A stretch of 37,069 bases of DNA from a virus (lineage: Duplodnaviria; Heunggongvirae; Uroviricota; Caudoviricetes), in the IMG/VR virus record IMGVR_UViG_2568526441_000003; one strand, 5' to 3'. The notes beneath the pieces were generated by a model. That model ran no database searches. It had not been told where the DNA came from and saw only the letters and a list, made by a program, of their open reading frames with translations. Below are positions 1 to 36,135 of the stretch, piece after piece. Position 1 is the stretch's first letter, and each line of letters begins with the position of its first letter. Both the position numbers and the translations under genes were made by a program.

Positions 1-1053
1 TTACGGGGTAATGCCAACCGCTGCCGCCACTTTGTCGCCATTTGGTAACGTTGCCAGTGGATTGAAACGGAGCGCCGTTTCCAAATGATCCGGTGCCAGA
101 TGCGCATAACGCATAGTCATTTTTATATCGTGGTGTCCGAGAATTTTTTGTAAGGCCAAGATGTTTCCACCCGACATCATGAAGTGCGCCGCAAACGTAT
201 GGCGCAGAACGTGTGTCAGTTGACCGCGAGGGAGAACGATAGACGTTTTTTCCATCACGGATAAAAATTGAAAATAGCAGTCTGTGAAGAAATTGAACCC
301 ATCGAGCGCCATGATCTCTTCATAAAGCTCTTTACTGATAGGGATGCTTCTGTTTTTCTTCCCCTTCGTTCTCACAAAGGTGATTCGGTACTTGGTGACC
401 TGTGAGCGGGTAAGATTGATTGCTTCTCGCCAACGTGCGCCGGTACTTAGACATATTTTTACCACCAGTGCCAGAATTGGGTTCTGACGTTTGCAGTCAG
501 ACAGTAATTCGATAATCTGCTCATGTGTAAGCCATGCCATTTCCTTTTCTGCGATAGTGAATTTGCGCATCTTCTCTAATGGGTTTGGAAGTGTCCATTC
601 ACCCAGGCGGGAAAGTTCTCTGAAAACGCTGCTTAGATGGCTTTGCTCCAGGTTAACAGTAACTGGGCTTGCTCCTTTCTTCCATTTTTCACTGAAGTAG
701 ATTTCACCAGTAAGGCGTTTATCGCGATAGTGAGCAAACATTTTTGAGGTGAGATCAGTTGCAAGGGGATTTCCCAAGGCGTCAACCATCAACAGCAGCT
801 TGTTGTAGACATGCTGTCCGGCAGTAAGAGATTTGCCATGTAATTTGAACCATAGCTCAACCATATCTTTCAGTGTCCGACGATCCACTGATTCGCCCAG
901 CCAGGGCTTTGCTTCTATTTCCCCCATGGTGTATCGCTCGAAGGCCAGTGCTTCGCCTTTGGTGGCGAATTGTTTACGCACACGGCGTCCGCTACGTCCG
1001 GCGGGGTAACATTCGCAAAGCCATTTCCCTGTGGTTAGTTTTCGTACTGCCAT
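1..1053 (-). CDS. int: tyrosine site-specific integrase (P2/186 Int family)
   Basis: 350-aa ORF; C-terminal catalytic motifs visible in translation (LSTGARWREA, HVLRHTFAAH, MTMRYAHL giving R..H-x-x-R..Y); position at prophage end next to the repressor operon. Stop codon is at window positions 1..3. Confidence 0.9.
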   Translation of the reverse strand: MAVRKLTTGKWLCECYPAGRSGRRVRKQFATKGEALAFERYTMGEIEAKPWLGESVDRRTLKDMVELWFKLHGKSLTAGQHVYNKLLLMVDALGNPLATDLTSKMFAHYRDKRLTGEIYFSEKWKKGASPVTVNLEQSHLSSVFRELSRLGEWTLPNPLEKMRKFTIAEKEMAWLTHEQIIELLSDCKRQNPILALVVKICLSTGARWREAINLTRSQVTKYRITFVRTKGKKNRSIPISKELYEEIMALDGFNFFTDCYFQFLSVMEKTSIVLPRGQLTHVLRHTFAAHFMMSGGNILALQKILGHHDIKMTMRYAHLAPDHLETALRFNPLATLPNGDKVAAAVGITP

Positions 1054-1135: not shown

Positions 1136-2812
1136 CTAAGCAACATGTAGTTCATCGTTGGCGGAAGTGGCTGCTTTGCGCTCCTGCTCAATAGCTAGAG
1201 ACTCTCTATATTCTTTCGCCTCTGCAAACATTGTCCAGTGGGCGTTGATGTTCATGTCTTCAATAACTGATTTGATTTCTTTTAAATTTACGTTAAAAAA
1301 CTCTTTTCGTGAGTTAATTTTATTGACCTGCTTTTCATTGAAAACTTTATGCAGATGGTTTTCTAATGATGGTGCATCATCACTATAAATCATCGCATGA
1401 ACATCGAACGAAAAAGGAACACTAGCATCTCCGAGTTCACGAACACGATCAAGTGGTTCAAGGCGGCGTGTCATTCCAATTTTATATACATCTTCGCCAA
1501 ATGAACCAATATTACTAATGATATAGACGTGGCCTGATCTGGTTTGTTGGGCCATAGAAATAGCTCGTTGATTTTTAGCTTCAGCTTCTTCATATTTTAA
1601 CTGTAGTTCAGCTATTTTTTGCTCTAAAGCTAAGCGTTGTTCTTCATTTGCAAGCATAAGTTCTTTCGTTGCTTTATTTATAGCTTGCTGAATAGCTTTT
1701 TCTTCTTTTTCAGCTTCTTTTATCGCTTTTTCATATTCTCTACGAGCTCTTTCCTCTTCACGAAGCTGTTCTTTAATCCTTCTTTGCTCTTCTTTTTCTT
1801 CGAGCATAATTTCATTAACTGCTACACCCCATTTTAGCTCGTTGAGTCTTGCCTGAAGATAGATGTCACTTATTTTTGCGGACCTAAAGGCAGAGCCATT
1901 GTAATTTACTAGTTGAAATGCATCTTTTATTTCTTGGGAAAGTTTTCCAAAATTGTTGTGTTTGACTTTTGATAAAATACTGTCAACTCTTCCATTGAAG
2001 GCATCCAAAACAAAGTTTATGGCAGTATTACGCCTGTTTTGCTCAACATAATCACACGAAGCAGCTTTATTAGTTTTTATTAATGATTTGGTTAACTCTC
2101 TGGCTTTTTGTAATTCCTTGCCTGCATCTGTAAATTCATAATTTTCTGCCAGCTCATCAAGTACACTACGGTTAGGGATGATCCATTCATCACCATAACC
2201 TTCAATTTTATTTTTCATTGATTTTGCAACTGCTTCATATTTTTCTGCAAACTCTTTAGCTTCATATGCTGAACCAGCAATCTCCTTTGCTCTTTCTTCT
2301 GCATCAGAAATAATTTTTACTGCATTGTCATTAGCATTTGAGATTAGCTCATTTGCTTTATTATTAGCATTATCAAGACGTTCTTTGGCTTTCAGGCGTG
2401 CATCGCGAGCGTCTTTGGTGATTGCTATAGCTTCGCTATTAGCGTTGCTTATTGTTATCTGAGCTTGATAATTTGCTTCGTTTACTGTTTTAGCCGCCTT
2501 AATTTGGGCTTCATCTATTTTTTGCTTGGCTATTGAGTCCGCATTTTTTATCTTATTCTCTGCATCCATTACTGCGCTGTGCAATTCTTCGTATTGCCAC
2601 AATGGTGCTGCTCGCCCTTCAAGCTCTGATAATTCTCGTACGGTCTGTGCTAGTTTTTCTTGATTTTCAATCAGTTGGTTAGAAAGGGCTATGTTGTTAG
2701 CTGTCAGGTTATCTATAGCCGCTTTGTGTTTTTTACTTTGTTTAAATAATATTACAGCTAGAACAGGGGCGAGAAATGCTAATAAGACTATAACGATGGC
2801 AAATGAATTCAT
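1136..2812 (-). CDS. cargo protein: N-terminal TM helix, long coiled coil, DUF4041-like region, C-terminal T5orf172 (GIY-YIG-like) domain; putative nuclease effector
   Basis: 558-aa ORF. N-terminus FAIVIVLLAFLAPVLAVILF is hydrophobic; long A/K/E/N-rich heptad-like stretches; C-terminal GHVYIISNIGSFGEDVYKIGMTRR matches the T5orf172/GIY-YIG-like signature from memory. Visibly AT-rich versus flanking phage DNA; SD-like AAGGA upstream of ATG; lies 20 nt downstream of cI stop on the same strand. Confidence 0.8.
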   Translation of the reverse strand: MNSFAIVIVLLAFLAPVLAVILFKQSKKHKAAIDNLTANNIALSNQLIENQEKLAQTVRELSELEGRAAPLWQYEELHSAVMDAENKIKNADSIAKQKIDEAQIKAAKTVNEANYQAQITISNANSEAIAITKDARDARLKAKERLDNANNKANELISNANDNAVKIISDAEERAKEIAGSAYEAKEFAEKYEAVAKSMKNKIEGYGDEWIIPNRSVLDELAENYEFTDAGKELQKARELTKSLIKTNKAASCDYVEQNRRNTAINFVLDAFNGRVDSILSKVKHNNFGKLSQEIKDAFQLVNYNGSAFRSAKISDIYLQARLNELKWGVAVNEIMLEEKEEQRRIKEQLREEERARREYEKAIKEAEKEEKAIQQAINKATKELMLANEEQRLALEQKIAELQLKYEEAEAKNQRAISMAQQTRSGHVYIISNIGSFGEDVYKIGMTRRLEPLDRVRELGDASVPFSFDVHAMIYSDDAPSLENHLHKVFNEKQVNKINSRKEFFNVNLKEIKSVIEDMNINAHWTMFAEAKEYRESLAIEQERKAATSANDELHVA

Positions 2813-3429: not shown

Positions 3430-3451
3430 ATCTCTTTTGCGATCCTAGTAT
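3423..3451 (+). promoter_or_regulatory. candidate lytic promoter pR (sigma70 -35 TTGACA, 17-nt spacer, -10 TAGTAT)
   Basis: TTGACA at 3423..3428 and TAGTAT at 3446..3451 read directly; the -35 overlaps the cI start codon (3427..3429 on minus strand); apl lies downstream. Confidence 0.5.
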
Positions 3452-3458
3452 CAGTTTT

Positions 3459-3474
3459 GTACCCAATTGGGTAC
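3459..3474. promoter_or_regulatory. perfect 16-bp palindrome GTACCCAATTGGGTAC at the predicted pR transcription start; candidate repressor operator
   Basis: Sequence is its own reverse complement; sits 8 nt downstream of the -10; a GGGTAC half-site recurs at about 3410..3415. Confidence 0.45.
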
Positions 3475-5102: not shown

Positions 5103-5329
5103 TGGCTGATGCAATGGATCTCGTACAGCAGCGCGTTGAAGAAGAACGCCAGCGTCATATCCATGCTGCCCGTGCCAAAACGCCGGGCGTGTCCCGCGTG
5201 CTTTGCATTGAGTGTGAAGCGCCAATTCCGCCAGCACGCCGCCGTGCCATTCCGGGTGTGCAGCTTTGCATTACCTGTCAGGAAATCGCAGAGCTGAAAG
5301 GCAAACATTACAACGGAGGTGCTGTATGA
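5102..5329 (+). CDS. TraR/DksA-family C4 zinc-finger protein
   Basis: 75-aa ORF with CIECEAPIP...CITCQ (CxxC-N17-CxxC) zinc-finger arrangement typical of phage TraR/DksA-like proteins. Confidence 0.7.
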   Translation: MADAMDLVQQRVEEERQRHIHAARAKTPGVSRVLCIECEAPIPPARRRAIPGVQLCITCQEIAELKGKHYNGGAV

Positions 5330-6183
5330 GCACCATCCTGAAATGGGCGGGAAATAAAACTGCCATAATGTCCGAACTGAAAAAACATCTTCCTGCTGGC
5401 CCGCGACTGGTTGAACCTTTCGCGGGTTCCTGTGCTGTGATGATGGAGACGGATTATCCCAGCTATCTGGTTGCGGATATTAATCCTGATTTAATCAACC
5501 TCTATAAAAAGGTTGCCGCTGATTGTGAATCGTTTATATCTCGCGCCAGAGTTTTATTTGAGATCGCAAACAGGGAGGTGGCTTATTACAACATAAGGCA
5601 GGAGTTTAATTACTCAACTGAAATTACTGATTTCATGAAAGCGGTATATTTCCTGTATCTCAATCGTCACGGTTACCGTGGTTTATGTCGCTATAACAAG
5701 AGCGGGCATTTCAACATTCCCTACGGTAATTATAAAAATCCGTATTTCCCTGAAAAAGAAATTCGCGCATTTGCAGAAAAGGCCCAGCGAGCAACGTTTA
5801 TCTGCGCCAGCTTTGATGAAACGCTGGCGATGTTGAAGGCGGGGGATGTGGTGTATTGCGATCCGCCGTATGACGGTACGTTTTCCGGCTATCACACTGA
5901 CGGCTTCACTGAAGATGACCAGTATCACCTGGCATCTGTTCTTGAACATCGGTCATCAGAAGGACATCCGGTCATTGTTTCTAACAGTGACACATCCCTG
6001 ATCCGTTCGCTGTATCGCAATTTTACTCACCACTACATCAAGGCAAAACGCAGCATCGGTGTGGCAGCTGGCGAGGGTAAATCAGCAACAGAAATCATTG
6101 CTGTTTCTGGGCCGCGCTGCTGGGTGGGATTTGATTATTCGCGTGGCGTGGATAGTTCTGCCGTGTACGGAGTACGTGCATGA
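5326..6183 (+). CDS. dam: DNA N6-adenine methyltransferase (Dam-like, D12 class)
   Basis: 285 aa from ATG 5326 (ATGA overlap with upstream stop); motifs KWAGNK near the N-terminus and DPPY (CDPPYDGTF) are hallmark N6-adenine MTase motifs. Confidence 0.85.
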
Positions 6184-8594
6184 GTCATGCCGATATGAAC
6201 AACTGCTGCGGCTTTAACGAAGCTGCCGCATCGTTCTCATGGAACAGCCCGAAAAAGGCCATTAACCCTTATCTGGACCCGGCGGAAGTTGCGCCGGTTT
6301 CTACGCTTTCAAACCTGATCACTCTGTACGCTGCCGATAACGAGCAGGAACAGCTGCGCCGTGAGGCGCTGAGTGATCAGGTCTGGGAGCGTTATTTCTT
6401 TAATGAATCCCGTGATCCTGTCCAGCGCGAAATGGAGCAGGATAAGCTCATTAGCCGGGCAAAGTTGGCGCATGAGCAGCAGCGTTTTAACCCGGACATG
6501 GTCATTCTGGCAGACGTCAGCGCCCAGCCCTCCCATATCAGCAAGCCGCTGATGCAACGTATTGAATACTTCAGCAGCCTGGGCAGGCCAAAGGCTTATT
6601 CCCGCTATTTACGTGAGACGATTAAGCCATGTCTGGAACGACTGGAGCATGTACGCGACAGCCAGCTATCTGCATCTTTTCGTTTTATGGCAAGCCATGT
6701 AGGGCTGGACGGCCTGCTGATTCTGCCTGAAATGAGTCAGGATCAGGTGAAACGCCTGTCTACCCTTGTCGCTGCGCATATGAGCATGTGCCTTGATGCA
6801 GCTTGTGGTGATTTGTATGCCACCGATGACGTTAAGCCAGAAGAAATCCGCAAGACATGGGAAAAGGTGGCAGCGGAAACCCTGCGTCTGGATGTCATCC
6901 CGCCTGCGTTTGAGCAACTCCGTCGGAAAAGAAACCGCCGTAAACCCGTGCCCTATGAACTCATTCCGGGTTCGCTGGCGCGTATGTTGTGCGCCGACTG
7001 GTGGTACCGGAAATTATGGAAAATGCGTTGCGAATGGTGGGAAGAGCAGTTGCGTGCTGTCTGCCTGGTCAGCAAAAAAGCATCTCCCTATGTCAGCTAT
7101 GAAGCCGTGATGCATAAACGTGAGCAGCGCCGCAAGTCACTGGAGTTTTTCCGTTCTCATGAACTGGTGAACGAAGAGGGCGACACGCTGGATATGGAAG
7201 ACGTGGTAAACGCCAGCAGCAGCAACCCGGCGCACCGCCGCAATGAGATGATGGCCTGTGTTAAAGGTCTGGAGCTTATCGCGGAAATGCGCGGTGACTG
7301 CGCCGTTTTCTACACCATCACCTGTCCGTCACGTTTCCATTCCACGCTAAATAACGGCAGGCCAAACCCGACCTGGACCAATGCGACAGTAAGACAAAGC
7401 AGCGATTATCTGGTCGGCATGTTTGCTGCATTTCGTAAGGCTATGCACAAAGCCGGGTTGCGCTGGTATGGCGTGCGGGTGGCTGAGCCGCATCATGACG
7501 GCACAGTTCACTGGCACCTGTTGTGTTTCATGCGCAAAAAAGACCGCCGCGCCATTACTGCATTGTTGCGTAAGTTTGCCATCCGTGAAGACCGCGAGGA
7601 GCTGGGCAATAACACGGGGCCACGCTTTAAGTCTGAGCTGATAAACCCGCGCAAAGGAACGCCGACAAGCTACATTGCGAAATATATCAGTAAGAATATT
7701 GACGGGCGTGGTCTGGCTGGCGAGATCAGTAAGGAAACGGGTAAATCCCTGCGTGATAACGCTGAATACGTTAATGCCTGGGCGTCTCTGCATCGTGTTC
7801 AGCAATTCCGCTTCTTTGGCATTCCGGGGCGTCAGGCTTACCGTGAACTGCGATTGCTGGCTGGTCAGGCGGCAAGGCAACAGGGTGACAAAAAAGCAGG
7901 TGCGCCGGTACTGGATAACCCGCGTCTTGATGCCATTCTGGCTGCTGCTGATGCTGGTTGTTTTGCCACCTACATCATGAAGCAGGGCGGCGTACTGGTT
8001 CCCCGCAAATATCACCTCATCAGAACCGCTTATGAAATCAACGAAGAGCCAACCGCCTATGGCGATCACGGTATTCGTATTTATGGCATCTGGTCACCCA
8101 TTGCAGAGGGCAAGATCTGCACTCATGCAGTGAAGTGGAAAATGGTTCGTAAGGCCGTTGACGTTCAGGAGGCGGCAGCCGACCAGGGCGCTTGCGCCCC
8201 TTGGACTCGTGGCAATAACTGTCCCCTTGCTGAAAATTTGAACCAACAAGGGAAAGACAAATCAGCTGATGGGGATACCAGAACGGACATTACCCGCATG
8301 AATGACAAGGAGTTGCACGATTATCTGCACAGTATGAACAAAAAAGAGCGCCGGGAACTGGCTGCAAGGTTACGCCTGGTGAAACCGAAACGGCGTAGAG
8401 ACTACAAACAGCGAATTACAGACCATCAACGACAGCAGCTCGTCTATGAACTGAAGTCCAGAGGATTTGATGGCAGCGAGAAAGAGGTCGATTTACTCCT
8501 TCGCGGCGGCAGCATTCCGTCAGGAGCAGGCCTGCGAATCTTCTATCGGAACCAGCGTTTGCAGGAAGATGATAAGTGGCGGAACCTGTATTAA
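6180..8594 (+). CDS. A: replication initiation endonuclease A (rolling-circle initiator, P2 gpA family)
   Basis: 804-aa ORF; size, position after the early operon, and segments such as HWHLL and YIAKYISK resemble P2/186 gpA as recalled. Confidence 0.85.
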
Positions 8595-8747: not shown

Positions 8748-8936
8748 ATGCAGGACTATTTTTTGGAGTCTTTGAAGCTCCAGCGCATTGATTTTTTTCT
8801 TAAGCTTGTAGCGGCTAGTGAGTGTAGTGATGAAGAGAAGGGGCTGGCTTTGCAGTGGGTTTCTGAACTAACAGATGAACTCATGGCAAAAATCAGAACC
8901 CACGAATACAACCGCTCAATGGATGTCATCAGTTGA
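8748..8936 (+). CDS. small hypothetical protein, first gene of LexA-controlled module (possible Tum N-terminal counterpart)
   Basis: 62-aa ORF from ATG 8748 with GGAGGA SD 5 nt upstream; immediately downstream of the LexA box. Confidence 0.55.
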   Translation: MQDYFLESLKLQRIDFFLKLVAASECSDEEKGLALQWVSELTDELMAKIRTHEYNRSMDVIS

Positions 8937-8946
8937 GGTGACTTTT

Positions 8947-9180
8947 ATGCGCATTGAAATAATGATCGATAAAGAGCAGAAGATTAGCCAGTCTATCCTG
9001 GACGCCCTTGAATCCGAGCTTTACCGCAATCTGCGCCCCCTGTATCCAAAAACGGTAATTCGTATCCGCAAAGGTAGCTCTAACGGTGTGGAACTGACCG
9101 GACTGCAACTGGACGAAGAAAGGAAGCAAGTGATGAAAATTATGCAGAAGGTGTGGGAAGACGATAGCTGGCTGCATTAA
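8947..9180 (+). CDS. DinI-family protein (Tum-like SOS-inducible antirepressor module)
   Basis: 77 aa, MRIEIMIDKEQ...VWEDDSWLH; begins and ends like E. coli DinI (MRIEV...W...W) as recalled; own SD-like GAGGTG upstream; 186 Tum is known to carry a DinI-like C-terminal domain. Confidence 0.7.
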   Translation: MRIEIMIDKEQKISQSILDALESELYRNLRPLYPKTVIRIRKGSSNGVELTGLQLDEERKQVMKIMQKVWEDDSWLH

Positions 9181-9354
9181 GAAACGTTGCCCCCAGTAGG
9201 GTTCATTCTGATGGGGGCTAGTTTGAGCAACGAGTGAAACGAGGCGTTAGGTGGGAGGCCATTTTGATAAGTTATCACCCACTTTATACCAATAACAGAA
9301 CTGCGTAATAACTATTTACCTCGGGGGGAGATGTGAGCCATACAAATTTCAGTA

Positions 9355-10413
9355 TTAATTTTCAATTCCCTCCATTTTACAATGAGTTTTTTCCCAGAAC
9401 TGTAATACAACAGGACTAGCCCACTCTGGCATCAGTGCGTTATTTAAAAAACTGAAAACATCATGAGACGCATCAGCATTTTTTCTAAGGAATTTCCAGC
9501 CTTTTCTAGTATTTATCTCAACAATACCTAACCCACCATCATTAAACATATGCATCTTGAATTCAGGATTGTTTACACCTAGAGATTTTATTTCTTTTAT
9601 GTATGGACTATCTTCATCCATAAATATTTTCTCTATGTGCTTAGCACAATGATATATTTTATTTCGATAAGTTGATACGCTCACAGCGGTACGCGCTGTT
9701 GTTATTCCCATTCCTAATGGGGCATATGCTTTTCCATCCATCACTACGGGCAGATTTATTCCATTTTTTCTTAAGTTTGCAATATCTGAATCTGTAGTTG
9801 GATGAATACAAGCTAAGCCTGAAATACCTTTCATTTCAAATATTTCTGCTGCTTCTGGCCAGTTGCGTATGAATGTTTCTACCAAATCTCTTTGAGAAAA
9901 AAGATTTGGTTCTATGTTTTTATCATGATGTTTTATATCAATAAAAAGCACAGCGTTTGAGTACACCTTCAGGAATAATACCCACTCAGCACGATCTGAG
10001 TATTTTTTACTTGAACTTACTGGATTTAATGGCAGATGGAGGTGATGAATCCCCCAATCAGCCCATAGGTTATCCGTTCTTTTCGTCGCCTTTTTACCGC
10101 TTGTGTCATTGAATAATGTTAATGTTTTACTCTGATAAGGATTTACATCACCACCAGTAGTAAACAACATCTCGATTCTCTGCAATCCAACCCTTGCGCC
10201 ATCGTGAATATTTTCAGGAAATCGATCTGATTTTAAAATTATTCGTTTTTGTGGAGCAATGTAGCGTAAAAGAAAATCACACCACCTCAGTAGAGGATCG
10301 TGAAGATTTGAGTGCCCGGATTCATCATATAATAACCCAAATGCTTGAATTCCCTTCTCTGAAATTTCGTCAATATCTTTGATTAGATCAATATTTTTTC
10401 GTGCGTCCAACAT
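9355..10413 (-). CDS. uncharacterized 352-aa cargo protein at the tin/old-equivalent variable locus; candidate defense or exclusion gene
   Basis: Long ORF on the strand opposite the early operon, visibly AT-rich, GGAG SD 6 nt upstream of ATG; I recognise no family. Confidence 0.65.
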   Translation of the reverse strand: MLDARKNIDLIKDIDEISEKGIQAFGLLYDESGHSNLHDPLLRWCDFLLRYIAPQKRIILKSDRFPENIHDGARVGLQRIEMLFTTGGDVNPYQSKTLTLFNDTSGKKATKRTDNLWADWGIHHLHLPLNPVSSSKKYSDRAEWVLFLKVYSNAVLFIDIKHHDKNIEPNLFSQRDLVETFIRNWPEAAEIFEMKGISGLACIHPTTDSDIANLRKNGINLPVVMDGKAYAPLGMGITTARTAVSVSTYRNKIYHCAKHIEKIFMDEDSPYIKEIKSLGVNNPEFKMHMFNDGGLGIVEINTRKGWKFLRKNADASHDVFSFLNNALMPEWASPVVLQFWEKTHCKMEGIEN

Positions 10414-10807
10414 ACTAACTCCGTTTAAATATAATTTTTTAGTATTTCAGTTAATTAATATCTATACGCCGTTATAGCTGAATTTTCCGGTGATTTCAGG
10501 GCACATTAACCAATTTAGATAATACTATAGTAATGGTTGGGCTGATTTTTCAAGAACAAAAGTAATTTTCAAGCTTTGTAACATGTTGATTTTCCACTTT
10601 TCGCTCAAGCGGGCTTTCATCTTTGCAAGCCCATATGTTCGTTTTTCAAGCGATTATTCAGATACGTTAACTTCCCATGGCAGTGCATAACTATGCTGCA
10701 TGAAATCGCATGATCGATCGAGGATCGTCTATGCTTAGACCAGCCAGAAATGGCGGGCTTTTGCTCATGTCATGCAGCTGCATGAAAACCACTGCATAAA
10801 GTGGGCA

Positions 10808-10826
10808 GGCGTGGCGGGGATACGAG
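10808..10826. other. candidate cos site (cohesive-end region)
   Basis: GGCGTGGCGGGGA at 10808..10820 matches the first 13 nt of the 19-nt cohesive end of 186/P2 as recalled from memory (GGCG[T/A]GGCGGGGAAAGCA-); GC-rich islet inside AT-rich DNA; flanked by a direct repeat GCTGCATGAAA (10696..10706 and 10777..10787) and a 14-bp palindrome CATGCAGCTGCATG (10771..10784). Confidence 0.45.
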
Positions 10827-10946
10827 CGCGCGCTAGAAACGTTTACTGATATTCTTGTAGTACATTGCATTTTTCTTTTTTTATGTCATATCATTAGCCA
10901 TTTGAATAGGACATTATTATCAATTTGTTGTCTCTGAGGATAAGTT

Positions 10947-12728
10947 ATGAATTTTGATGCAACACCACTAAATATAAAAAACATTCTATCTGTAAAACAA
11001 AGATATGTTATTCCTCGTAATCAACGTGAGTTTAGTTGGGAAAAGCTTCAGCTTGAAGAGTTATGGCAAGATATTGTCAGAAACATAAGGTTGAATGAAG
11101 ATGGACAGAACTTGGAGTGTTCAGAATATTTTATAGGGACTATTGTTCTTTCTGGAGCAGATAGTGATGATGTATTAGAAGTGGTTGATGGACAACAACG
11201 ATTTTCAGTTATTACTATATTGCTTTCATTAATATCGCGTAAATTGCGTTCCTTAGGGCAAGATTCATTAGCGGATGATATATTTAAAACATATATCGTT
11301 ACTGTGAGTCCTACATTTAGCAGAAGCCAATTAGCTTCAAATGGTGAGACATTTATTGAAAAATTAGCAAAAAATAGCGATAGAACATATTTTAAGTTAA
11401 AATATCAAGATCGCGAAGAGCATCAAGTTGATGAATCTTGTGAAGAGGATGTACGTATAAGTTATGCAGGAATTTTTCTTTCTAGAAAACTAGGGAGGAA
11501 ATCACTCTGTTCTGCATTGTTGCGAGATGGTGCAAAACATTATAATAACCAAGATTATATATTTTGTTTGACTGCTGTATATAGAATGATTACCAATTAT
11601 TTGAAGTTGGTAAAAATATCTGTAGGTAAGGAGGATGATGCTTATGATATTTTTGAAGTGTTGAATGCTCGAGGGATAAACTTAAGTTCAATTGATTTGA
11701 TAAAGAATAAAGTATTCCAAACTTGCACTCAAACATATCCGGTAGATATTGCAAAAACAAAATGGGATTATATCGTTACTCAAATTGAGTCTAGGGATAG
11801 TAATAGCACTATTGCTGATTATATTAGAACGTGGTGGCTTTCTAAGTATAATTATATTGGAGAAGATCAACTTTATCGTGCTTTTAAACGTGAGATTCAA
11901 GATGAGAATACTTTATTGTCATCAGCATCATTTCTGAACGAATTATATGATGATGTTGAATTATACTGTAAAATAATAGCGCCAAATACAGATGACTGGC
12001 CTCAACCTGATCAGCGTGAAATTTACAACTCGTTAAAAGCATTCGAGATTTTTAATGTGAGTATTCCTCGACCATTTGTACTCTCATTACTTAGAAAACG
12101 TAAAGAGAAACCGAGAGCCCTTACACAATCAATGCTGATAGAATGTTTGAAGTCCTTAGAGTCATTTCACTTTAAGTTTAATGCAGTATGTCGTCTAAGA
12201 CCATCTGGAATCGATGCAAAATATTCTGTATTAGCAGTAAGAATGAATAAGGCATTAAATAAAAGAGATGTTGAGGGTGTTATTAATGACGCGTTAGATT
12301 ATTTTACACAGAAAGGACCTTCAGAAAATATATTCAAACAAGCATTTTCAAAGAATATTGTTTATACAAATAAAAAGTCTGGGCAAAGGAAGTTGATTGT
12401 TTATATTTTTGACAAATTGGAACGTATCAGACGAGGGACGCGAGAGTTAAAAATGGATATAGTTTCTTTGGAACACATATCATCTCAAAGCAAAACTAAC
12501 GAGTCAGTCGTGGGTATGATTGGTAATTTACTACCACTCTGTTTTTCACTTAATGAAGATTGCAAAAATTATGAGTTGCACAAAAAAATAGAATCTTATA
12601 AAAAATCTGATTTAAAATTAGTTACAGAGTTTGTTAGTGAGTCAGAAGCAAGAGAACATAAATGGGATGATTCATTAATAAAAGAAAGAACAGATGGCTT
12701 GGCGTTAGAAACGTTTGCTAAAATATAA
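10947..12728 (+). CDS. DUF262/DUF1524 (GmrSD-family) putative type IV modification-dependent restriction endonuclease
   Basis: 593 aa; N-terminal ParB-like DUF262 signature (NQREFSWEKLQLEELWQDI ... VVDGQQR) and C-terminal His-Me-finger-like segment (LEHISSQSK); GAGGA SD upstream; visibly AT-rich. Confidence 0.75.
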   Translation: MNFDATPLNIKNILSVKQRYVIPRNQREFSWEKLQLEELWQDIVRNIRLNEDGQNLECSEYFIGTIVLSGADSDDVLEVVDGQQRFSVITILLSLISRKLRSLGQDSLADDIFKTYIVTVSPTFSRSQLASNGETFIEKLAKNSDRTYFKLKYQDREEHQVDESCEEDVRISYAGIFLSRKLGRKSLCSALLRDGAKHYNNQDYIFCLTAVYRMITNYLKLVKISVGKEDDAYDIFEVLNARGINLSSIDLIKNKVFQTCTQTYPVDIAKTKWDYIVTQIESRDSNSTIADYIRTWWLSKYNYIGEDQLYRAFKREIQDENTLLSSASFLNELYDDVELYCKIIAPNTDDWPQPDQREIYNSLKAFEIFNVSIPRPFVLSLLRKRKEKPRALTQSMLIECLKSLESFHFKFNAVCRLRPSGIDAKYSVLAVRMNKALNKRDVEGVINDALDYFTQKGPSENIFKQAFSKNIVYTNKKSGQRKLIVYIFDKLERIRRGTRELKMDIVSLEHISSQSKTNESVVGMIGNLLPLCFSLNEDCKNYELHKKIESYKKSDLKLVTEFVSESEAREHKWDDSLIKERTDGLALETFAKI

Positions 12729-12735
12729 GTTCAGT

Positions 12736-12754
12736 GGCAGGTATAGTACCTGCC
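12736..12754 (+). terminator. hairpin (8-bp stem, 3-nt loop) after the GmrSD-like gene
   Basis: GGCAGGTA-TAG-TACCTGCC followed by a moderately T-rich ATTATTCAATTT; lies between convergent gene ends. Confidence 0.4.
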
Positions 12755-12764
12755 ATTATTCAAT

Positions 12765-13802
12765 TTACATACACTCCACTGAGTATTCACTGAATGAGAT
12801 GATGTTTTTTTTAGCCCATTCATTAAGTTGCAGAATATGTTTTTGAATTGGTAGTAACTCATTCATAACAAATACTTTCGCGGCCTTTTCCACATCCCCA
12901 AACCCCCCAACATTATTTGGCATAATCCCCATCATTTGCGGCGGCACTCGGTGTGCTGCCATCATGTCATCGCGGCTCACGTTCTTGATATTCAGAAACT
13001 CATCCTTCGCTGCGACTTCTGACAACGGGATAATCTGAAGTCCGTCCTTTTTGCCGTTAGGCGAGTACATAAACAGATTGCGGAAGTTGCCTGGACCTTT
13101 GGCGCTTTTCATCGCGTTGCGGAGGTTGTTCACATCCTCCTGATTCTGCGCGGCGTCGGTCATGTACATGATGAAGCCTGCATGACTACCGTTGATGTAA
13201 TACTTACGGCGGAACAGCGTGGCGGATTCGTTGAGCAGGGCGGATGGAATGGCAGAAAGATAGCCGGGCAGGCCGTAGATCTCCTGGTTGATGTCCGGTT
13301 CCATCAGATGAAAAATGCTGCCTTTCGTGAACTGATACTGCTGGGTTGTCATACCGTATTGCACAAACCAGTAGGTATCCAGGTCTAACCCGCGTCGGGT
13401 GTATTTTGCCAGCGCAGGCTCAAGGGCGATAACTTCACCGAATCGGTTCGTGCGTTTCTCCAGGTAGGCGTTACCAAATACCAGATAGTCCTGCACAAAA
13501 CGCGAAAAAGCCTGTTGGCTGAGCAGCGGATGAGGGATATAGGTACTGGTCAGAATGTTGCACTTTACTGCAATCGGGGAACTGTGATGCACGGCAGCGC
13601 GGAAGGTGCGCGCCAGTCCGTCAAAGCTGACGGGAGGCTCATACCAGCGATCTGTCTGAACACATTCCACATAGTCCAGCAGTTCGCGGCGGTCAAGTAC
13701 TGGAACGGGATCACCGAAGCTGAATGCTTCGGCTGAAGTCTGGTTTTTATGCTGGATCTGATTCGTCGCCGCAGCGCGGTTTTTCTTACTCTTTCCCATC
13801 AA
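12765..13802 (-). CDS. Q: capsid portal protein Q
   Basis: 345-aa ORF, leftward, overlapping the terminase gene start by 4 nt; matches P2 Q position and size. Confidence 0.85.
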   Translation of the reverse strand: MMGKSKKNRAAATNQIQHKNQTSAEAFSFGDPVPVLDRRELLDYVECVQTDRWYEPPVSFDGLARTFRAAVHHSSPIAVKCNILTSTYIPHPLLSQQAFSRFVQDYLVFGNAYLEKRTNRFGEVIALEPALAKYTRRGLDLDTYWFVQYGMTTQQYQFTKGSIFHLMEPDINQEIYGLPGYLSAIPSALLNESATLFRRKYYINGSHAGFIMYMTDAAQNQEDVNNLRNAMKSAKGPGNFRNLFMYSPNGKKDGLQIIPLSEVAAKDEFLNIKNVSRDDMMAAHRVPPQMMGIMPNNVGGFGDVEKAAKVFVMNELLPIQKHILQLNEWAKKNIISFSEYSVECM

Positions 13803-15565
13803 AAAATCTCCACAATATTGCTGGTATTGGCGGACTCGCCCTGCAGCGGTTCGTTAAACAGTGCGTGCATTGTTGCCCAGGCCAGATCGGCGTGGCTGGC
13901 TTCTTCGCTGCGGCTGGCTTCATAGGTCGGGCGGTTGCCACTGGCGGTGGTGGCACGACGGATTGCCATGAATGACTGCGCAATGTCGGTGTGCCCGGCG
14001 TCAAACTCCAGACGGCGGTGGCTGATAATGTCGTAGGCCTTGAGTACCAGGGCATTTTTAACGTTGGGGTTGTAGACAAACTCCCGGACGGCAGGAAAGA
14101 ACGCTTTCACGTTCTCGTAAACTCCGTGACCGACACCTGTCGAGTCGATACCGATATAGGTCACGTTGTACTGTTCGGTCAGTTTTTTGATGGCGTCAGC
14201 TTGGGCGCGGAAGTCCATCCCGCGCCACTGGTGACGCTCAAGAATGCGAAACTTACCGCCTGGCACGGCTGGCGGTGCCACCACCACGCATCCGGCGCTG
14301 TCGCCGTTCTGCGTACCTTTTGCCGGGTCATAACCGATCCACACTTCTCGCCAGCCAAACGGGCGCAGGGCCAGTGCATGAAAGTCGGTCCAGACTTCCC
14401 AACTGTCCACCATGCATGCCTGCAGCTCGCTGAGCGGAAATACGGACGCGAGATCGTCCACGAATTCACACATCAGCAGGTTCTGGTATTCGTCCGGGCT
14501 GTATTCCATGCGCAACTGGTCAAGGTCGAACAGGTTACAGCCGCCGCGCACCGCATCTTCCACGGTGACTATCTGGCGGTATTGCCCGTCTGCACACAGC
14601 AGGCCTGGAGCCAGATTGCTGTGGGACAGGTCGATGTCCACCTTGTCGGCTTTATTGCGCCCACGGTTGAATAGCGCACCGGACCAGAACGGATAAGCAC
14701 TGTGTGTCAGGCTGGATGGCGTGGAAAAATAGGTTTGTCGCCATTTTTTGTGAATAGCCATACCGGAAGCCACTTTGCGCAGCTCCTGGAATTTCGGTAT
14801 CCAGAAATATTCATCCAGATACAGGTTGCCGTGGTAACTCTGGGCCGTGCGGGCATTGGTGCCGAGGAAATACAGTGTGGCCCCGTTGGGAAGCACCATC
14901 GGATCGCCTTTCAGCTCCACTTCCACTTCTTTGGCGAAGTCGATGATGTACTGCTTAAAGACGTGGGCCTGTGCCTTGCTGGCGGAAAGGAAAATCTGGT
15001 TACGTCCGGTAAGCAGAGCGTCAATCAGGGCTTCACGGGCAAAGTAAAAGGTCGCGCCGATCTGGCGTGACTTCAGCAGGTTGCGGATGCGGTTGGTTTT
15101 TCCGGCTTCCCACCAGTGGCGCTGGTAGTTGAACATAGAGGAATGGAAGATTTCTACCAGCTTCTCAATCTGCTCATCGGTGAAAACATTCTTTTCCGGC
15201 TGACGGCGCGGGCCTTTGTTGCGGTTGGCGACGTTAGGGTTTAAGTCGGCTTCGTTGCCGCCATTGTTAAACTTGCCGATCCGCGCGTGGCGTTCCGACT
15301 GGCGCGCCAGCAGGTCAATCTCTTTGAAATCTTTCCCTTCTTTGTGCTCCTTCATAATGAGCTGGCAGTAGCGTGCGGCGGTGGTGAGCTGCATCTGATC
15401 CAGCGGCCCATAGTCACCCCACTTGTCGCGTTTCTTCCAGCTGTGAACGGTTGCAACTTTCTCGCCCAGCATTTCAGCAATGCGGGCTACACGGTATCCC
15501 TGAAAGTACAGCAGCATGGCCTGCCGACGGGGATCGAGATCTGCGGGTGTCAGTGTGGTGTTCAT
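13799..15565 (-). CDS. P: terminase large (ATPase) subunit P
   Basis: 588-aa ORF divergent from the O-N-M capsid operon; matches P2 P size and position. Confidence 0.85.
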   Translation of the reverse strand: MNTTLTPADLDPRRQAMLLYFQGYRVARIAEMLGEKVATVHSWKKRDKWGDYGPLDQMQLTTAARYCQLIMKEHKEGKDFKEIDLLARQSERHARIGKFNNGGNEADLNPNVANRNKGPRRQPEKNVFTDEQIEKLVEIFHSSMFNYQRHWWEAGKTNRIRNLLKSRQIGATFYFAREALIDALLTGRNQIFLSASKAQAHVFKQYIIDFAKEVEVELKGDPMVLPNGATLYFLGTNARTAQSYHGNLYLDEYFWIPKFQELRKVASGMAIHKKWRQTYFSTPSSLTHSAYPFWSGALFNRGRNKADKVDIDLSHSNLAPGLLCADGQYRQIVTVEDAVRGGCNLFDLDQLRMEYSPDEYQNLLMCEFVDDLASVFPLSELQACMVDSWEVWTDFHALALRPFGWREVWIGYDPAKGTQNGDSAGCVVVAPPAVPGGKFRILERHQWRGMDFRAQADAIKKLTEQYNVTYIGIDSTGVGHGVYENVKAFFPAVREFVYNPNVKNALVLKAYDIISHRRLEFDAGHTDIAQSFMAIRRATTASGNRPTYEASRSEEASHADLAWATMHALFNEPLQGESANTSNIVEIF

Positions 15566-17619: not shown

Positions 17620-18270
17620 ATGAGCCTGAGTCCCGCACGGCAGCATCGCCTGCGCGTTCAGGCTGAACAGGCCGCTCGCGAGGGTGGCAGTGTTCGCCAC
17701 GCGTCGGGCTATGACCTGATGCTGCTGCAACTGGCGGAAGACCGTCGCCGTCTCAAGGGCGTTCAGTCCACGGTAAAAAAAGCGGAAATCAAGGTGGAGC
17801 TGCTGCCGAAATATGCTGCCTGGGCGGAGGGCGTTCTGGCTGCCGGAGGCGCTCAACAGGATGACGTGCTGATGTACGTGATGCTGTGGCGCATTGATGC
17901 CGGAGATTATGCCGGGGCGCTGGAGATCGGGCGTCATGCCCTGCGTCATGGCTGGGTGATGCCGCTGGGTAACCGCAACGTGCAGACCGTGCTGGCAGAG
18001 GAAATGGCAGACGCGGCGCAGAGCGCAATGCTTGCCGCCACCGGCTTTGATGCCGCTCTGTTGCTGCAGACGCTGGAGCTGACAGATGGTCTGGATATGC
18101 CGGACCAGTCACGGGCGCGTCTGCATAAAGCGATTGGCGCTGTCCTGAGTGAAAGTAATCCGGCTTCCGCCCTTAATCATCTCAACCATGCGTTACAGCT
18201 CGATCCCCGCTGTGGCGTGAAAAAAGACAAACAGCAGCTGGAGCGCAGACTGCGCAATGACAGCCGCTGA
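17620..18270 (+). CDS. M: terminase small (endonuclease) subunit M
   Basis: 216-aa ORF directly after N; synteny with P2 M. Confidence 0.8.
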   Translation: MSLSPARQHRLRVQAEQAAREGGSVRHASGYDLMLLQLAEDRRRLKGVQSTVKKAEIKVELLPKYAAWAEGVLAAGGAQQDDVLMYVMLWRIDAGDYAGALEIGRHALRHGWVMPLGNRNVQTVLAEEMADAAQSAMLAATGFDAALLLQTLELTDGLDMPDQSRARLHKAIGAVLSESNPASALNHLNHALQLDPRCGVKKDKQQLERRLRNDSR

Positions 18271-34214: not shown

Positions 34215-34449
34215 CGCTGCCGCCATTTTGCCGCCATCGTTAAAAAACAGTGCTTTTAACATCATGATTTTAAACAGCATAAATTTCAGGCAACAAAAAA
34301 CCCACCAACCTTGAACCGAAATGGCGGGGTTGATGGGCTCCACAAAATGGGGACATCAAAGAAAAGCAGTGGCACTAATTAAGACTGATGCCCTGCGGAA
34401 AAGTTCTGCGGTTGTGCAAAAAAATTTCATTTTCAGGGCAACTTCAGTT

Positions 34450-36135
34450 TTATCCTAATCCTGGCCATACCATGACGATGATTGTCCCTGCTAGCGTCAG
34501 CAGGACGTTGGCGATTGCATAGGTGCCCGCATAGCCCAGCGCCGGGATGTTACTGCGAGCTGTATCACTGATGATCTCCATTGCCGGCGCGCAGGTGCGT
34601 GCGCCCATCATTGCGCCGAACAACAGTGCGCGGTTCATTCGCAATACATAAGCACCGAACAAGAAGCAGATAACCACTGGCACCAGACTGACAATCAATC
34701 CGGCAATCAACATTTGACCGCCAATCGCGCCCAGGCCGTTATTAATACCGCTACCGGCGCTCAGACCAACGCCTGCCATAAACACCATCAAGCCGAACTC
34801 TTTCACCATGCTTAATGCACCTTGCGGAATGTAACCGAAGGTCGGGTGGTTAGCACGCATAAAGCCCAGCATAATTCCGGCGAATAACAACCCGGCAGCG
34901 TTCCCCATGCCGAAACTGAATGTGCTGAACTGGAAGGTGATCATCCCGATCATCAGCCCAATAACAAAGAAGGCGCAGAATGCCAGCAAGTCAGTGACCT
35001 GGCTGTGAATCGAGATAAAGCCGATGCGATCGGCGATGGTTTTTACGCGACGGGCATCGCCGCTGACTTGTAAAACGTCACCTTTGTTAAGCACGACGTT
35101 GTCATCAATCGGCATCTCAATCTGGCTACGAATGACGCGGTTAAGGAAGCAACCGTGATCGGTCAACTTCAGTTGTGCGAGACGTTTGCCTACAGCGTTA
35201 TGGTTTTTAACGACCACTTCTTCAGTGACGATACGCATGTCGAGAAGGTCACGATCGAAAACTTCTTTGCCATTACGGAAACTGGGATCGAGTCGGGCGT
35301 GGGCGTCGGGGTAGCCTACCAACGCTATTTCATCGCCCATTTGTAGCACGGCATCACCGTCTGGATTTGCCAGAATCCCGTTACGCCGAATACGTTCAAT
35401 GTAACAGCCAGTTTGTCGATAAATACCCAGTTCACGCAGATTTTTGCCGTCGGTCCAGGCCACCAGCTCCGGGCCGACGCGGTAGGCGCGGATCACCGGT
35501 AAATAAACCTTACGGTTGGCATCAGTGTCCAGGCCACGTTCGCGGGCGATTTGCTGGGCGCTGGTCTGTAAGTCCTGATGCTGCAATTTCGGCAAGTAAC
35601 GCGCACCAACAATCAAACTCACCAGACCGATTAAATAGGTTAAGGCATATCCGAGGCTCAGATTATCCAGCGCCAGTGAGAGCTGCCTGCTTTCCATACC
35701 GGAATGACGCAGTGTATCGCCAGCACCGACCAAAACCGGTGTTGACGTCATAGAGCCTGCTAACATACCGGCCGTCAGGCCAATATCCCAGCCAAACAGC
35801 TTACCTAACCCTAAGGCGATGACCAGCGCACTGCCAACCATCACCAGTGCTAACATTAGGTAATTTTTCCCATCGCGAAAAAAAATGGAAAAAAAGTTCG
35901 GTCCGGCTTCGACCCCGACGCAGAAAATAAACAGCATAAAGCCAAGATTAAGCGCGTCGGTGTTAATGCTGAAATGTTGTTGGCCTAATAACAGCGATAC
36001 GACTAAAACGCCAATGGAATTACCCAGTTGGATCGAACCAAGTCGTAATTTCCCGAGACATAGCCCAAGCGCGAGGACCACAAATAATAACAGAATGTAA
36101 TTCCCATTTAACAATTCGGCGACGTTTATATTCAC
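34450..36135 (-). CDS. ybjL: putative transport protein YbjL (AAE-family, two TrkA-C domains); host gene
   Basis: 561-aa membrane protein recognised as E. coli YbjL; adjacent ybjM and grxA match the K-12 gene order. Confidence 0.85.

Follow-up and report, generated by a model that had tools for sequence, protein, structure and literature searches.

Results

The stretch of DNA analyzed here (the window; 37,069 nt) contains a prophage of the P2 family. It begins with an integrase gene (1..1053, minus strand; identified by Pfam), followed by a PD-Lambda-1 homologue (1136..2812, minus strand), genes for the CI repressor, CII, and a Dam methylase, the gene for replication protein gpA (6180..8594), and a DinI/Tum-like gene (8875..9180). 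On the far side of two cargo genes lie the genes for the portal protein (gpQ homologue; 12765..13802, minus strand; Pfam Phage_portal), the large terminase subunit TerL (gpP homologue; 13799..15565, minus strand; Pfam Terminase_6N, Terminase_6C, and Terminase_5), and the small, endonuclease subunit TerS (gpM homologue; 17620..18270, plus strand; Pfam Phage_term_smal). Scaffold and capsid genes sit near that for TerS, after that for TerL, and are followed by lysis and tail genes through gpD. An att-like core occurs at 34292..34305, beside host genes for an Asp-Al_Ex permease and YbjM (both by Pfam). With integrase, CI, CII, Dam, gpA, head, lysis, and tail genes all present, the prophage appears complete.

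Two divergent genes occupy the interval between the DinI/Tum-like and portal genes. The first is a PD-T4-7 homologue (9355..10413, minus strand; PADLOC E = 3.9e-144), near which a promoter-like site was found (10553..10524, minus strand). The second is a GmrSD-like gene of the DUF262/DUF1524 type (10947..12728, plus strand; Pfam GmrSD_N and GmrSD_C) that also resembles HEC-06 (PADLOC E = 9.2e-75). Both belong to anti-phage defence families and have a putative defence role. They flank, and are transcribed away from, an intergenic region that an earlier note on this DNA had proposed to hold a cos site sandwiched between two cargo genes; the analysis supported this arrangement, with the PD-T4-7 homologue on the right-end side and the GmrSD-like gene on the left-end side. 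The GmrSD-like and portal genes converge on a terminator-like hairpin (12733..12757; 11-bp stem, -16.2 kcal/mol, z -5.3). A cos site at 12729..12764, the location that according to the same note would have spoken against its proposal, was rejected, as this interval holds the hairpin and no cos-like motif within 2 mismatches.

The intergenic region includes the sequence GGCGTGGCGGGGA (10808..10820, plus strand), which opens the 19-mer GGCGTGGCGGGGATACGAG (10808..10826, plus strand), predicted by homology to mapped cos sites to be a 19-nt 5' cohesive end. The 13-mer has no other exact copy in the window, where 0.0011 copies would be expected by chance over both strands, in line with the earlier remark that a chance occurrence is unlikely. 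It had been recognized as the start of the 186/P2 cohesive end, and the match to 186 holds: the first 13 nt are identical to those of the 186 sequence, GGCGTGGCGGGGAAAGCAT. The records of phages 186 and PSP3 open with this annotated 19-nt end (cos 1..19 in 186), that of P2 opens with the annotated GGCGAGGCGGGGAAAGCAC, and that of P4 has the same 19-mer as P2, its end being unannotated there. Across all 19 positions, the window agrees with 186 at 15 and with P2 at 13.

Closer matches were found among Fels-2-type phages. SopEPhi, Fels-2, and Yersinia phage MLG42 carry the identical 19-mer, with CGCGCGC after it, at the corresponding site. For Salmonella phage SEN8, the deposited sequence has a first base corresponding to 10808 and a last base corresponding to 10807; its positions 1..19 are GGCGTGGCGGGGATACGAG, annotated as “putative cos site” and also quoted in the genome announcement. 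Most directly, Zuend et al. (2021, Microbiome 9:77; PMC8008629, Suppl. Table 4) reported GGCGTGGCGGGGATACGAG as the cos of the mitomycin-C-inducible E. coli HS phage 1, derived from read start-site analysis and PhageTerm. The HS prophage genome carries the identical 19-mer, and the published coordinates (926016-926034) are one base off the current RefSeq record. It also shares the gene order of the prophage studied here, with a backbone 96% identical on both sides of the cargo interval. TerL is identical to its HS counterpart at 587 of 588 residues and TerS at 214 of 216. Because the two terminase subunits are thus 99-100% identical and the 19-mer is the same as the mapped HS cos, an HS-type terminase faces the same cut-site sequence in both prophages. 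We infer from this homology that the present prophage would be nicked at 10807/10808 on the top strand and at 10826/10827 on the bottom strand; offsets below are counted from the top-strand nick.

The 19-mer is part of a longer conserved element. Scanning IMG/VR for the 19-mer returned 120 contigs, and conservation was computed over their 115 unique flanks. It ranged from 80 to 100% between -126 and +26 and fell to the random level immediately beyond; positions +1 to +19 were fixed by the search itself, and the remaining positions of the block were free to vary. The complete cos block so delimited spans 10682..10833 (plus strand; 152 bp). By blastn, matches to 81 phage records were confined to about 10682..10837, and in the DinI-portal interval of the E. 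coli HS prophage only 10685..10845 could be aligned (84%). The 152-bp block itself is identical to that of HS at 128 of 152 positions (84%). Compared with the family consensus it has 14 differing positions (relatives have a median of 12), none of them in the 19-mer or at a highly conserved position of the core. On its left flank, homology stops with CGCGCGC (10827..10833, plus strand), a heptamer kept in all Fels-2-type relatives and in P4 and replaced by TGCGCGC in P2 and 186. An Rfam search over 9000..13000, block included, gave no family at E <= 1.

Alignment to the cos regions of P2, 186, and PSP3 had been suggested as a check of the proposal. Their joined ends, as well as those of P4, match 10682..10833 base for base and without gaps. 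A 55-bp cos core has been described for P2 and P4 (Ziermann and Calendar 1990, as cited in PMC5694545 and PMC3931495); its equivalent, with the span placed at -29 to +26 by the present analysis, is 10779..10833 (plus strand; ungapped alignment). Over this span the window is identical to E. coli HS at 53 of 55 positions, to 186 at 45, to PSP3 at 44, to P4 at 42, and to P2 at 41, and P2 and P4 agree with each other at 52 of 55.

Around the cut, 186 and PSP3 (Eganvirus) resemble the window. The 39 bp before the cut are nearly alike and the last 13 of them are the same as in 186, so that the junction ...GTCATGCAACTGCATTAAAACCGACCCATAAAGTGGGCA|GGCGTGGCGGGGAAAGCAT of 186 compares with ...GTCATGCAGCTGCATGAAAACCACTGCATAAAGTGGGCA|GGCGTGGCGGGGATACGAG in the window. 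In contrast, 4 of the last six overhang bases are different (TACGAG in the window versus AAGCAT), the window lacks the left-arm hairpin GCGCGCCAGAGGTGGCGCG of 186, the TerS proteins are only about 49% identical, and the portal gene of 186 begins about 0.2 kb after cos with no intervening cargo. P2 and P4 share with the window a 19-nt, GC-rich 5' overhang and the gpA-gpQ location, but the fifth base of their overhang is A and its 3' part reads AAAGCAC. TerS of the present prophage shares at least 95% of its residues with its counterparts in Fels-2-type phages (from Klebsiella, Salmonella, and E. coli) and only about 49% with gpM of 186 and P2. This divergence parallels the change from AAAGCAT/C to ATACGAG in the 3' part of the overhang, and the two together suggest a distinct cos/terminase class within the family.

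Taken with the position of the block between the gpA side and the portal gene, and with the presence of cognate gpP and gpM terminase genes, these comparisons indicate that 10682..10833 is very probably the cos site of an apparently intact E. coli prophage of the P2 family, of the Fels-2/SopEPhi type. Wherever P2 markers were detected around the 19-mer or 26-mer (120 IMG/VR contigs and 38 genome stretches were screened), gpA or DinI lay upstream and portal or TerL downstream; in the IMG/VR contigs the former were on the plus strand and the latter on the minus strand. Some stretches with the exact 19-mer or 26-mer (overhang plus CGCGCGC) had no detectable P2 marker, among them several Chitinimonas contigs and IMG/VR loci such as L047; this gene context is typical, not universal. 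Searches of the same 120 contigs and 38 stretches by tblastn with psu, sid, delta, and alpha found no P4-like satellites with this cos variant.

The right arm of the block, on the right-end side of the cut, contains a series of short elements, YGCAT, whose layout is a feature read from the present alignment rather than taken from a published criterion. A distal triplet (10684..10711, plus strand) consists of TGCAT at 10684, TGCAT at 10697, and CGCAT at 10707 (-124, -111, and -101). A proximal TGCAT at 10779 (-29) is paired with an inverted ATGCA at 10772 (-36; pair within 10771..10787, plus strand), and a fifth TGCAT at 10793..10797 (-15, plus strand) is lineage specific: relatives mostly have ACAT at this element, with G at -14 in 10%. 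The offsets -124, -111, -101, and -29 are common to the window, HS, SEN8, SopEPhi, Fels-2, MLG42, 186, and P4, and the first motif is shifted to -123 in P2 and to -120 in PSP3. Positions of the distal triplet are 90-100% conserved in the 115 relatives. TGCAT at -29 was present in 10 of 10 phages compared, and ATGCA at -36 in all of these except P2 and P4. Counting both orientations, 10682..10807 holds 5 copies of TGCAT/ATGCA against 0.3 expected, an approximately 17-fold enrichment (Poisson P = 1.5e-5).

The repeats listed in the earlier note resolve into these same elements. Its direct repeat GCTGCATGAAA was confirmed for the second copy (10777..10787), and the first copy lies at 10695..10705, one base from the 10696..10706 originally given; the two copies are the -29 and -111 elements, respectively. 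The related octamers were both present, GTGCATAA at 10683..10690 (the -124 element) and CTGCATAA at 10792..10799 (the -15 element), and a repeat search extended them to 10-mers of 90% identity (10681..10690 and 10790..10799). The perfect 14-bp palindrome CATGCAGCTGCATG was found at 10771..10784 as described. It is the inverted pair at -36 and -29 and is perfect only with C at -30, which is true of 24% of relatives; 14-bp palindromes are also not rare in the window (4 versus about 2.3 expected).

That such repeats are candidate binding elements for terminase or a host factor, as the earlier note had it, is a reasonable suggestion. We would go somewhat further, tentatively, in proposing that the four position-locked YGCAT elements might together form a recognition array for the P2-family terminase or for a host factor. 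Consistent with such a role, phages whose TerS proteins are only about 49% identical share the same spacing of these elements, which diverged copies from Chitinimonas (Betaproteobacteria) also retain. A literature search found no biochemically defined YGCAT array for a P2-family terminase.

A further feature of the right arm is a degenerate GC-rich hairpin followed by a T-run (-69 to -46; 10739..10762, plus strand), recognized by folding and by comparison with relatives. There, it takes the form GCCCGCCAG-N-CTGGCGGGCTTTT, a stem also given as GCCCGCCAG-N-CTGGCGGGC, followed by TTTT, with -69 to -50 conserved at 80-100%. The folding energy is -21.8 kcal/mol (z -5.0) in HS, whereas in the window two uncompensated stem changes (A at 10739 and A at 10742) weaken it to -10.9 kcal/mol (z -1.2). 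In relatives the hairpin resembles an intrinsic terminator for rightward transcripts, and it is intact in 49 of 62 cases in which the upstream gene points toward cos versus 15 of 27 otherwise, a weak link (Fisher p = 0.039). The hairpin may be a terminator that lies within the right arm but is not itself essential to cos. Its absence from P2 argues that it is dispensable, and selection on a terminator would be relaxed here because the upstream PD-T4-7 gene points away from cos. If it were instead a packaging signal, the present stem changes could lower efficiency.

Such terminator-like properties raise the question of whether the whole block might be mainly transcriptional, that is, a terminator and/or a pair of divergent promoters with the repeats as operators, its likeness to cos being secondary. 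The T-run hairpin of relatives, more often intact where a gene is directed at cos, would fit this, as would the divergence of both cargo genes of the window from the intergenic region that holds the block. However, the block does not change with the cargo beside it, and a terminator role would explain only about 24 of its 152 bp. Moreover, the YGCAT layout is common to P2, P4, and 186, whose ends were physically determined, and P4 shares only the cos region with P2, because it needs the terminase of P2. A mainly transcriptional role is highly improbable.

We also considered whether the block encodes a small protein, given that the window has a 59-aa open reading frame at 10691..10870 (minus strand) and that some phage records annotate hypothetical proteins, in short plus-strand frames, at this location. 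Yet even the most widely open frame ran through the block in at most 33 of 94 relatives, and only 2 of 94 had the minus-strand frames of the window open. Variability along the block had no codon (3-nt) periodicity, and neither a Pfam match nor a RefSeq annotation was found, all of which makes coding function exceedingly unlikely for what we regard as a noncoding cos site.

Another possibility is that the prophage is cryptic or defective and that its intact-looking cos is a relic that is never cut. Degradation of the -69 to -50 hairpin relative to relatives could be taken in this sense, and decay does occur in the group: related phage 500465-1 has a 1-nt deletion in the overhang as well as IS elements. 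Against this, the genes for portal, TerL, and TerS have full-length reading frames that match those of the inducible HS phage at 92-100% identity, and the integrase, CI, CII, Dam, and gpA open reading frames give full-length Pfam matches. Neither the 19-mer nor the highly conserved core has changed, and the divergence of the block from consensus is typical of the family. We therefore regard a relic as unlikely, and infer that the present prophage is probably inducible and its cos functional.

Given a cut at this position, the cargo genes would become the outermost genes of the packaged genome. From the predicted cut at 10808 to the portal stop at 12765 is 1957 bp, in agreement with the earlier estimate that the GmrSD-like gene lies at the far left end, about 2 kb from the portal gene. 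In linear virion DNA with these predicted ends, drawn in the conventional map orientation, the GmrSD-like gene would start 139 nt from the left end and the start codon of the PD-T4-7 homologue would lie 395 nt from the right end.

Cargo next to cos is common among relatives. HS phage 1 and the Felsduovirus members Fels-2, SopEPhi, and SEN8 have the same 19-nt overhang, CGCGCGC flank, and YGCAT layout, and the same gene order (gpA, DinI, optional cargo, cos, optional cargo, portal, TerL), but their cargo on both sides is unrelated to that of the window. Genes between cos and portal were found in Fels-2, SopEPhi, SEN8, phage 500465-1, and the E. coli HS prophage; in P2, by contrast, which also lacks the inverted motif at -36 and the GC-rich hairpin, cargo (old and tin) is on the right-end side only. 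Among 53 IMG/VR contigs in which both DinI and portal were visible, extra DNA of at least 400 bp occurred on both sides of cos in 38, on the portal side only in 10, on the DinI side only in 4, and on neither in 1. Spacing from cos to portal ranged from 153 to 3531 bp, and cargo lengths vary widely over the 120 contigs.

Discussion

The cos site described here is an element of a known kind in a known genomic arrangement. The cos-proximal locus between gpA and gpQ is the P2 defence hotspot (Rousset et al. 2022, PMC9122126), and insertion between cosL and Q was noted by Dodd and Egan (1996) and Nakayama (1999), as cited in PMC5694545. A cos between cargo genes is thus the normal, already described state of the locus. 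Little new biology follows from it; what is gained is the placement of the packaged-genome ends for a common E. coli prophage type, with the PD-T4-7 and GmrSD-like genes as the terminal genes of its virion DNA, insofar as those ends are predicted by homology.

Judging by homology with P2 and 186, packaging would proceed as follows. After excision and replication, a terminase of gpM-like and gpP-like subunits would recognize the 152-bp block and nick each strand once, the top one before 10808 and the bottom one after 10826, yielding linear virion DNA with 19-nt, 5'-protruding GGCGTGGCGGGGATACGAG ends. Recognition would most likely involve the 55-bp core at 10779..10833 together with the long right arm and its four YGCAT elements, which may be analogous in role to the R sites of lambda cosB. 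Lambda cos (cosQ-cosN-cosB) likewise combines a staggered-nick site with an asymmetric array of short repeats that are candidate sites for the small subunit; the likeness is one of analogy only, as the lambda overhang is 12 nt rather than 19 nt, the sequences are unrelated, and the small subunits belong to different families. P2-type phages prefer monomeric circles as packaging substrate. Our literature search returned nothing usable on packaging direction or substrate, or on what binds P2 cos.

If the YGCAT elements do serve in recognition, the compact, asymmetric packaging signal (26 bp on the left-end side of the cut, 126 bp on the right-end side) would act as a fixed anchor around which defence genes can be exchanged on both sides, and both ends of the virion DNA would carry defence cargo. 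Foreign genes can directly adjoin cos because the signal needs only about these lengths. The boundaries at -126 and +26, along with the invariant YGCAT offsets, provide a mutagenesis map for recognition by P2-family terminases, and the block is useful for the design of cosmids or transducing particles with Fels-2-type helper phages.

For annotation, the cos block marks the center of the gpA-gpQ defence hotspot. Of 5426 complete E. coli genomes, 1274 contain it and hardly ever annotate it, and the exact 26-mer is present in many genera of Enterobacterales. The segment 9300..13000, with both cargo genes, recurs at 100% identity in 47 complete E. coli genomes, ECONIH1, MS6198, and FDAARGOS_497 among them; this recurrence could reflect clonal descent and not phage activity. 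As for co-segregation of cos alleles with left or right cargo, which would point to recombination breakpoints inside cos, only one of the contigs, from the same prophage (L114), shares the cargo of the window, and one contig carries a 70% homologue of the GmrSD-like gene together with a very divergent cos block.

Inheritance of the cos block

Alignment of window 10685..10845 with the E. coli HS prophage revealed that the cos block was 84% identical, whereas the backbone on either side was 96% identical. Judged from sequence comparison, inheritance of the cos block appears to go with the exchangeable cargo of the hotspot between gpA and the portal gene rather than with the backbone. Within the right arm (the gpA/DinI side of the cut), the GC hairpin at 10739..10758, 80-100% conserved in relatives, showed two uncompensated stem substitutions in the window prophage; the cargo gene upstream of it in this prophage was oriented away from cos.

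A 13.5-kb IMG/VR contig (L047) had a 19-mer cos identical to that of the window, flanked by ~12 kb on the gpA side and ~1.5 kb on the portal side. Its genes included a P4-type-arm integrase, RecE/RecT, YdaT, a ParB-HTH protein, and a DnaC/IstB-like ATPase, and none of gpA, DinI, portal, or TerL was found on the whole 13.5-kb contig. The cos block evidently also moves with an early-gene module of another kind.

The exact 26-mer GGCGTGGCGGGGATACGAGCGCGCGC, comprising the 19-nt overhang and its CGCGCGC left flank, was also identified in Betaproteobacteria: on five separate contigs of Chitinimonas sp. BJB300 (L136-L139 and L156) and on three of C. taiwanensis DSM 18899 (L142, L159, and L167). The right arms of these Chitinimonas copies had diverged in sequence and retained the layout of three YGCAT motifs, a hairpin, and GTGCAT. 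Among the Chitinimonas contigs, portal and TerL genes adjoined cos in L139 only, at 68% and 65% identity, respectively. In Chitinimonas sp. BJB300, ParA/ParB adjoined cos on the 12.6-kb contig L138, and the 6-kb contig L137 carried an HTH protein and a BrnT toxin. As carriers of cos, such contigs may be plasmids or satellites of a P2-like helper.

A metagenomic IMG/VR contig (L088) contained two complete cos blocks, at 3447-3465 (minus strand) and 6704-6722 (plus strand), which were distinct alleles, inverted relative to each other and 3.2 kb apart; the pair could represent two neighboring elements or a chimeric assembly. The overhang of Escherichia phage 500465-1 (NC_049342; L010, about position 2630) had a 1-nt deletion (GGCGTG-CGGGGATACGAG), and IS21/IS100-type genes were found nearby; this cos is probably dead. 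The record of Escherichia phage Cartapus (NC_070909) stops at the position matching window 10775, 32 nt short of the predicted cut, so that its termini as deposited are probably arbitrary and not the physical ends.

Prophage boundaries and additional genes

E. coli HS phage 1 has a reported att core of 14 bp (PMC8008629). An att-like core, AACAAAAAACCCAC, one base off that core, was identified at window 34292..34305, directly past the tail genes and ahead of a host gene for an Asp-Al_Ex permease (34450..36135, minus strand; Pfam). Because of this position between tail and host genes, 34292..34305 is likely the right prophage boundary; the left boundary is at the window start or beyond.

A PD-Lambda-1 homologue (1136..2812, minus strand; PADLOC, 2.3e-120) with T5orf172/MUG113 and DUF4041 domains is located between the genes for integrase and CI repressor; it is a third defense gene of the window prophage and occupies a second cargo position. 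A D12-class Dam methyltransferase gene (5266..6183, plus strand) lies directly upstream of gpA, the same arrangement as in the E. coli HS prophage.
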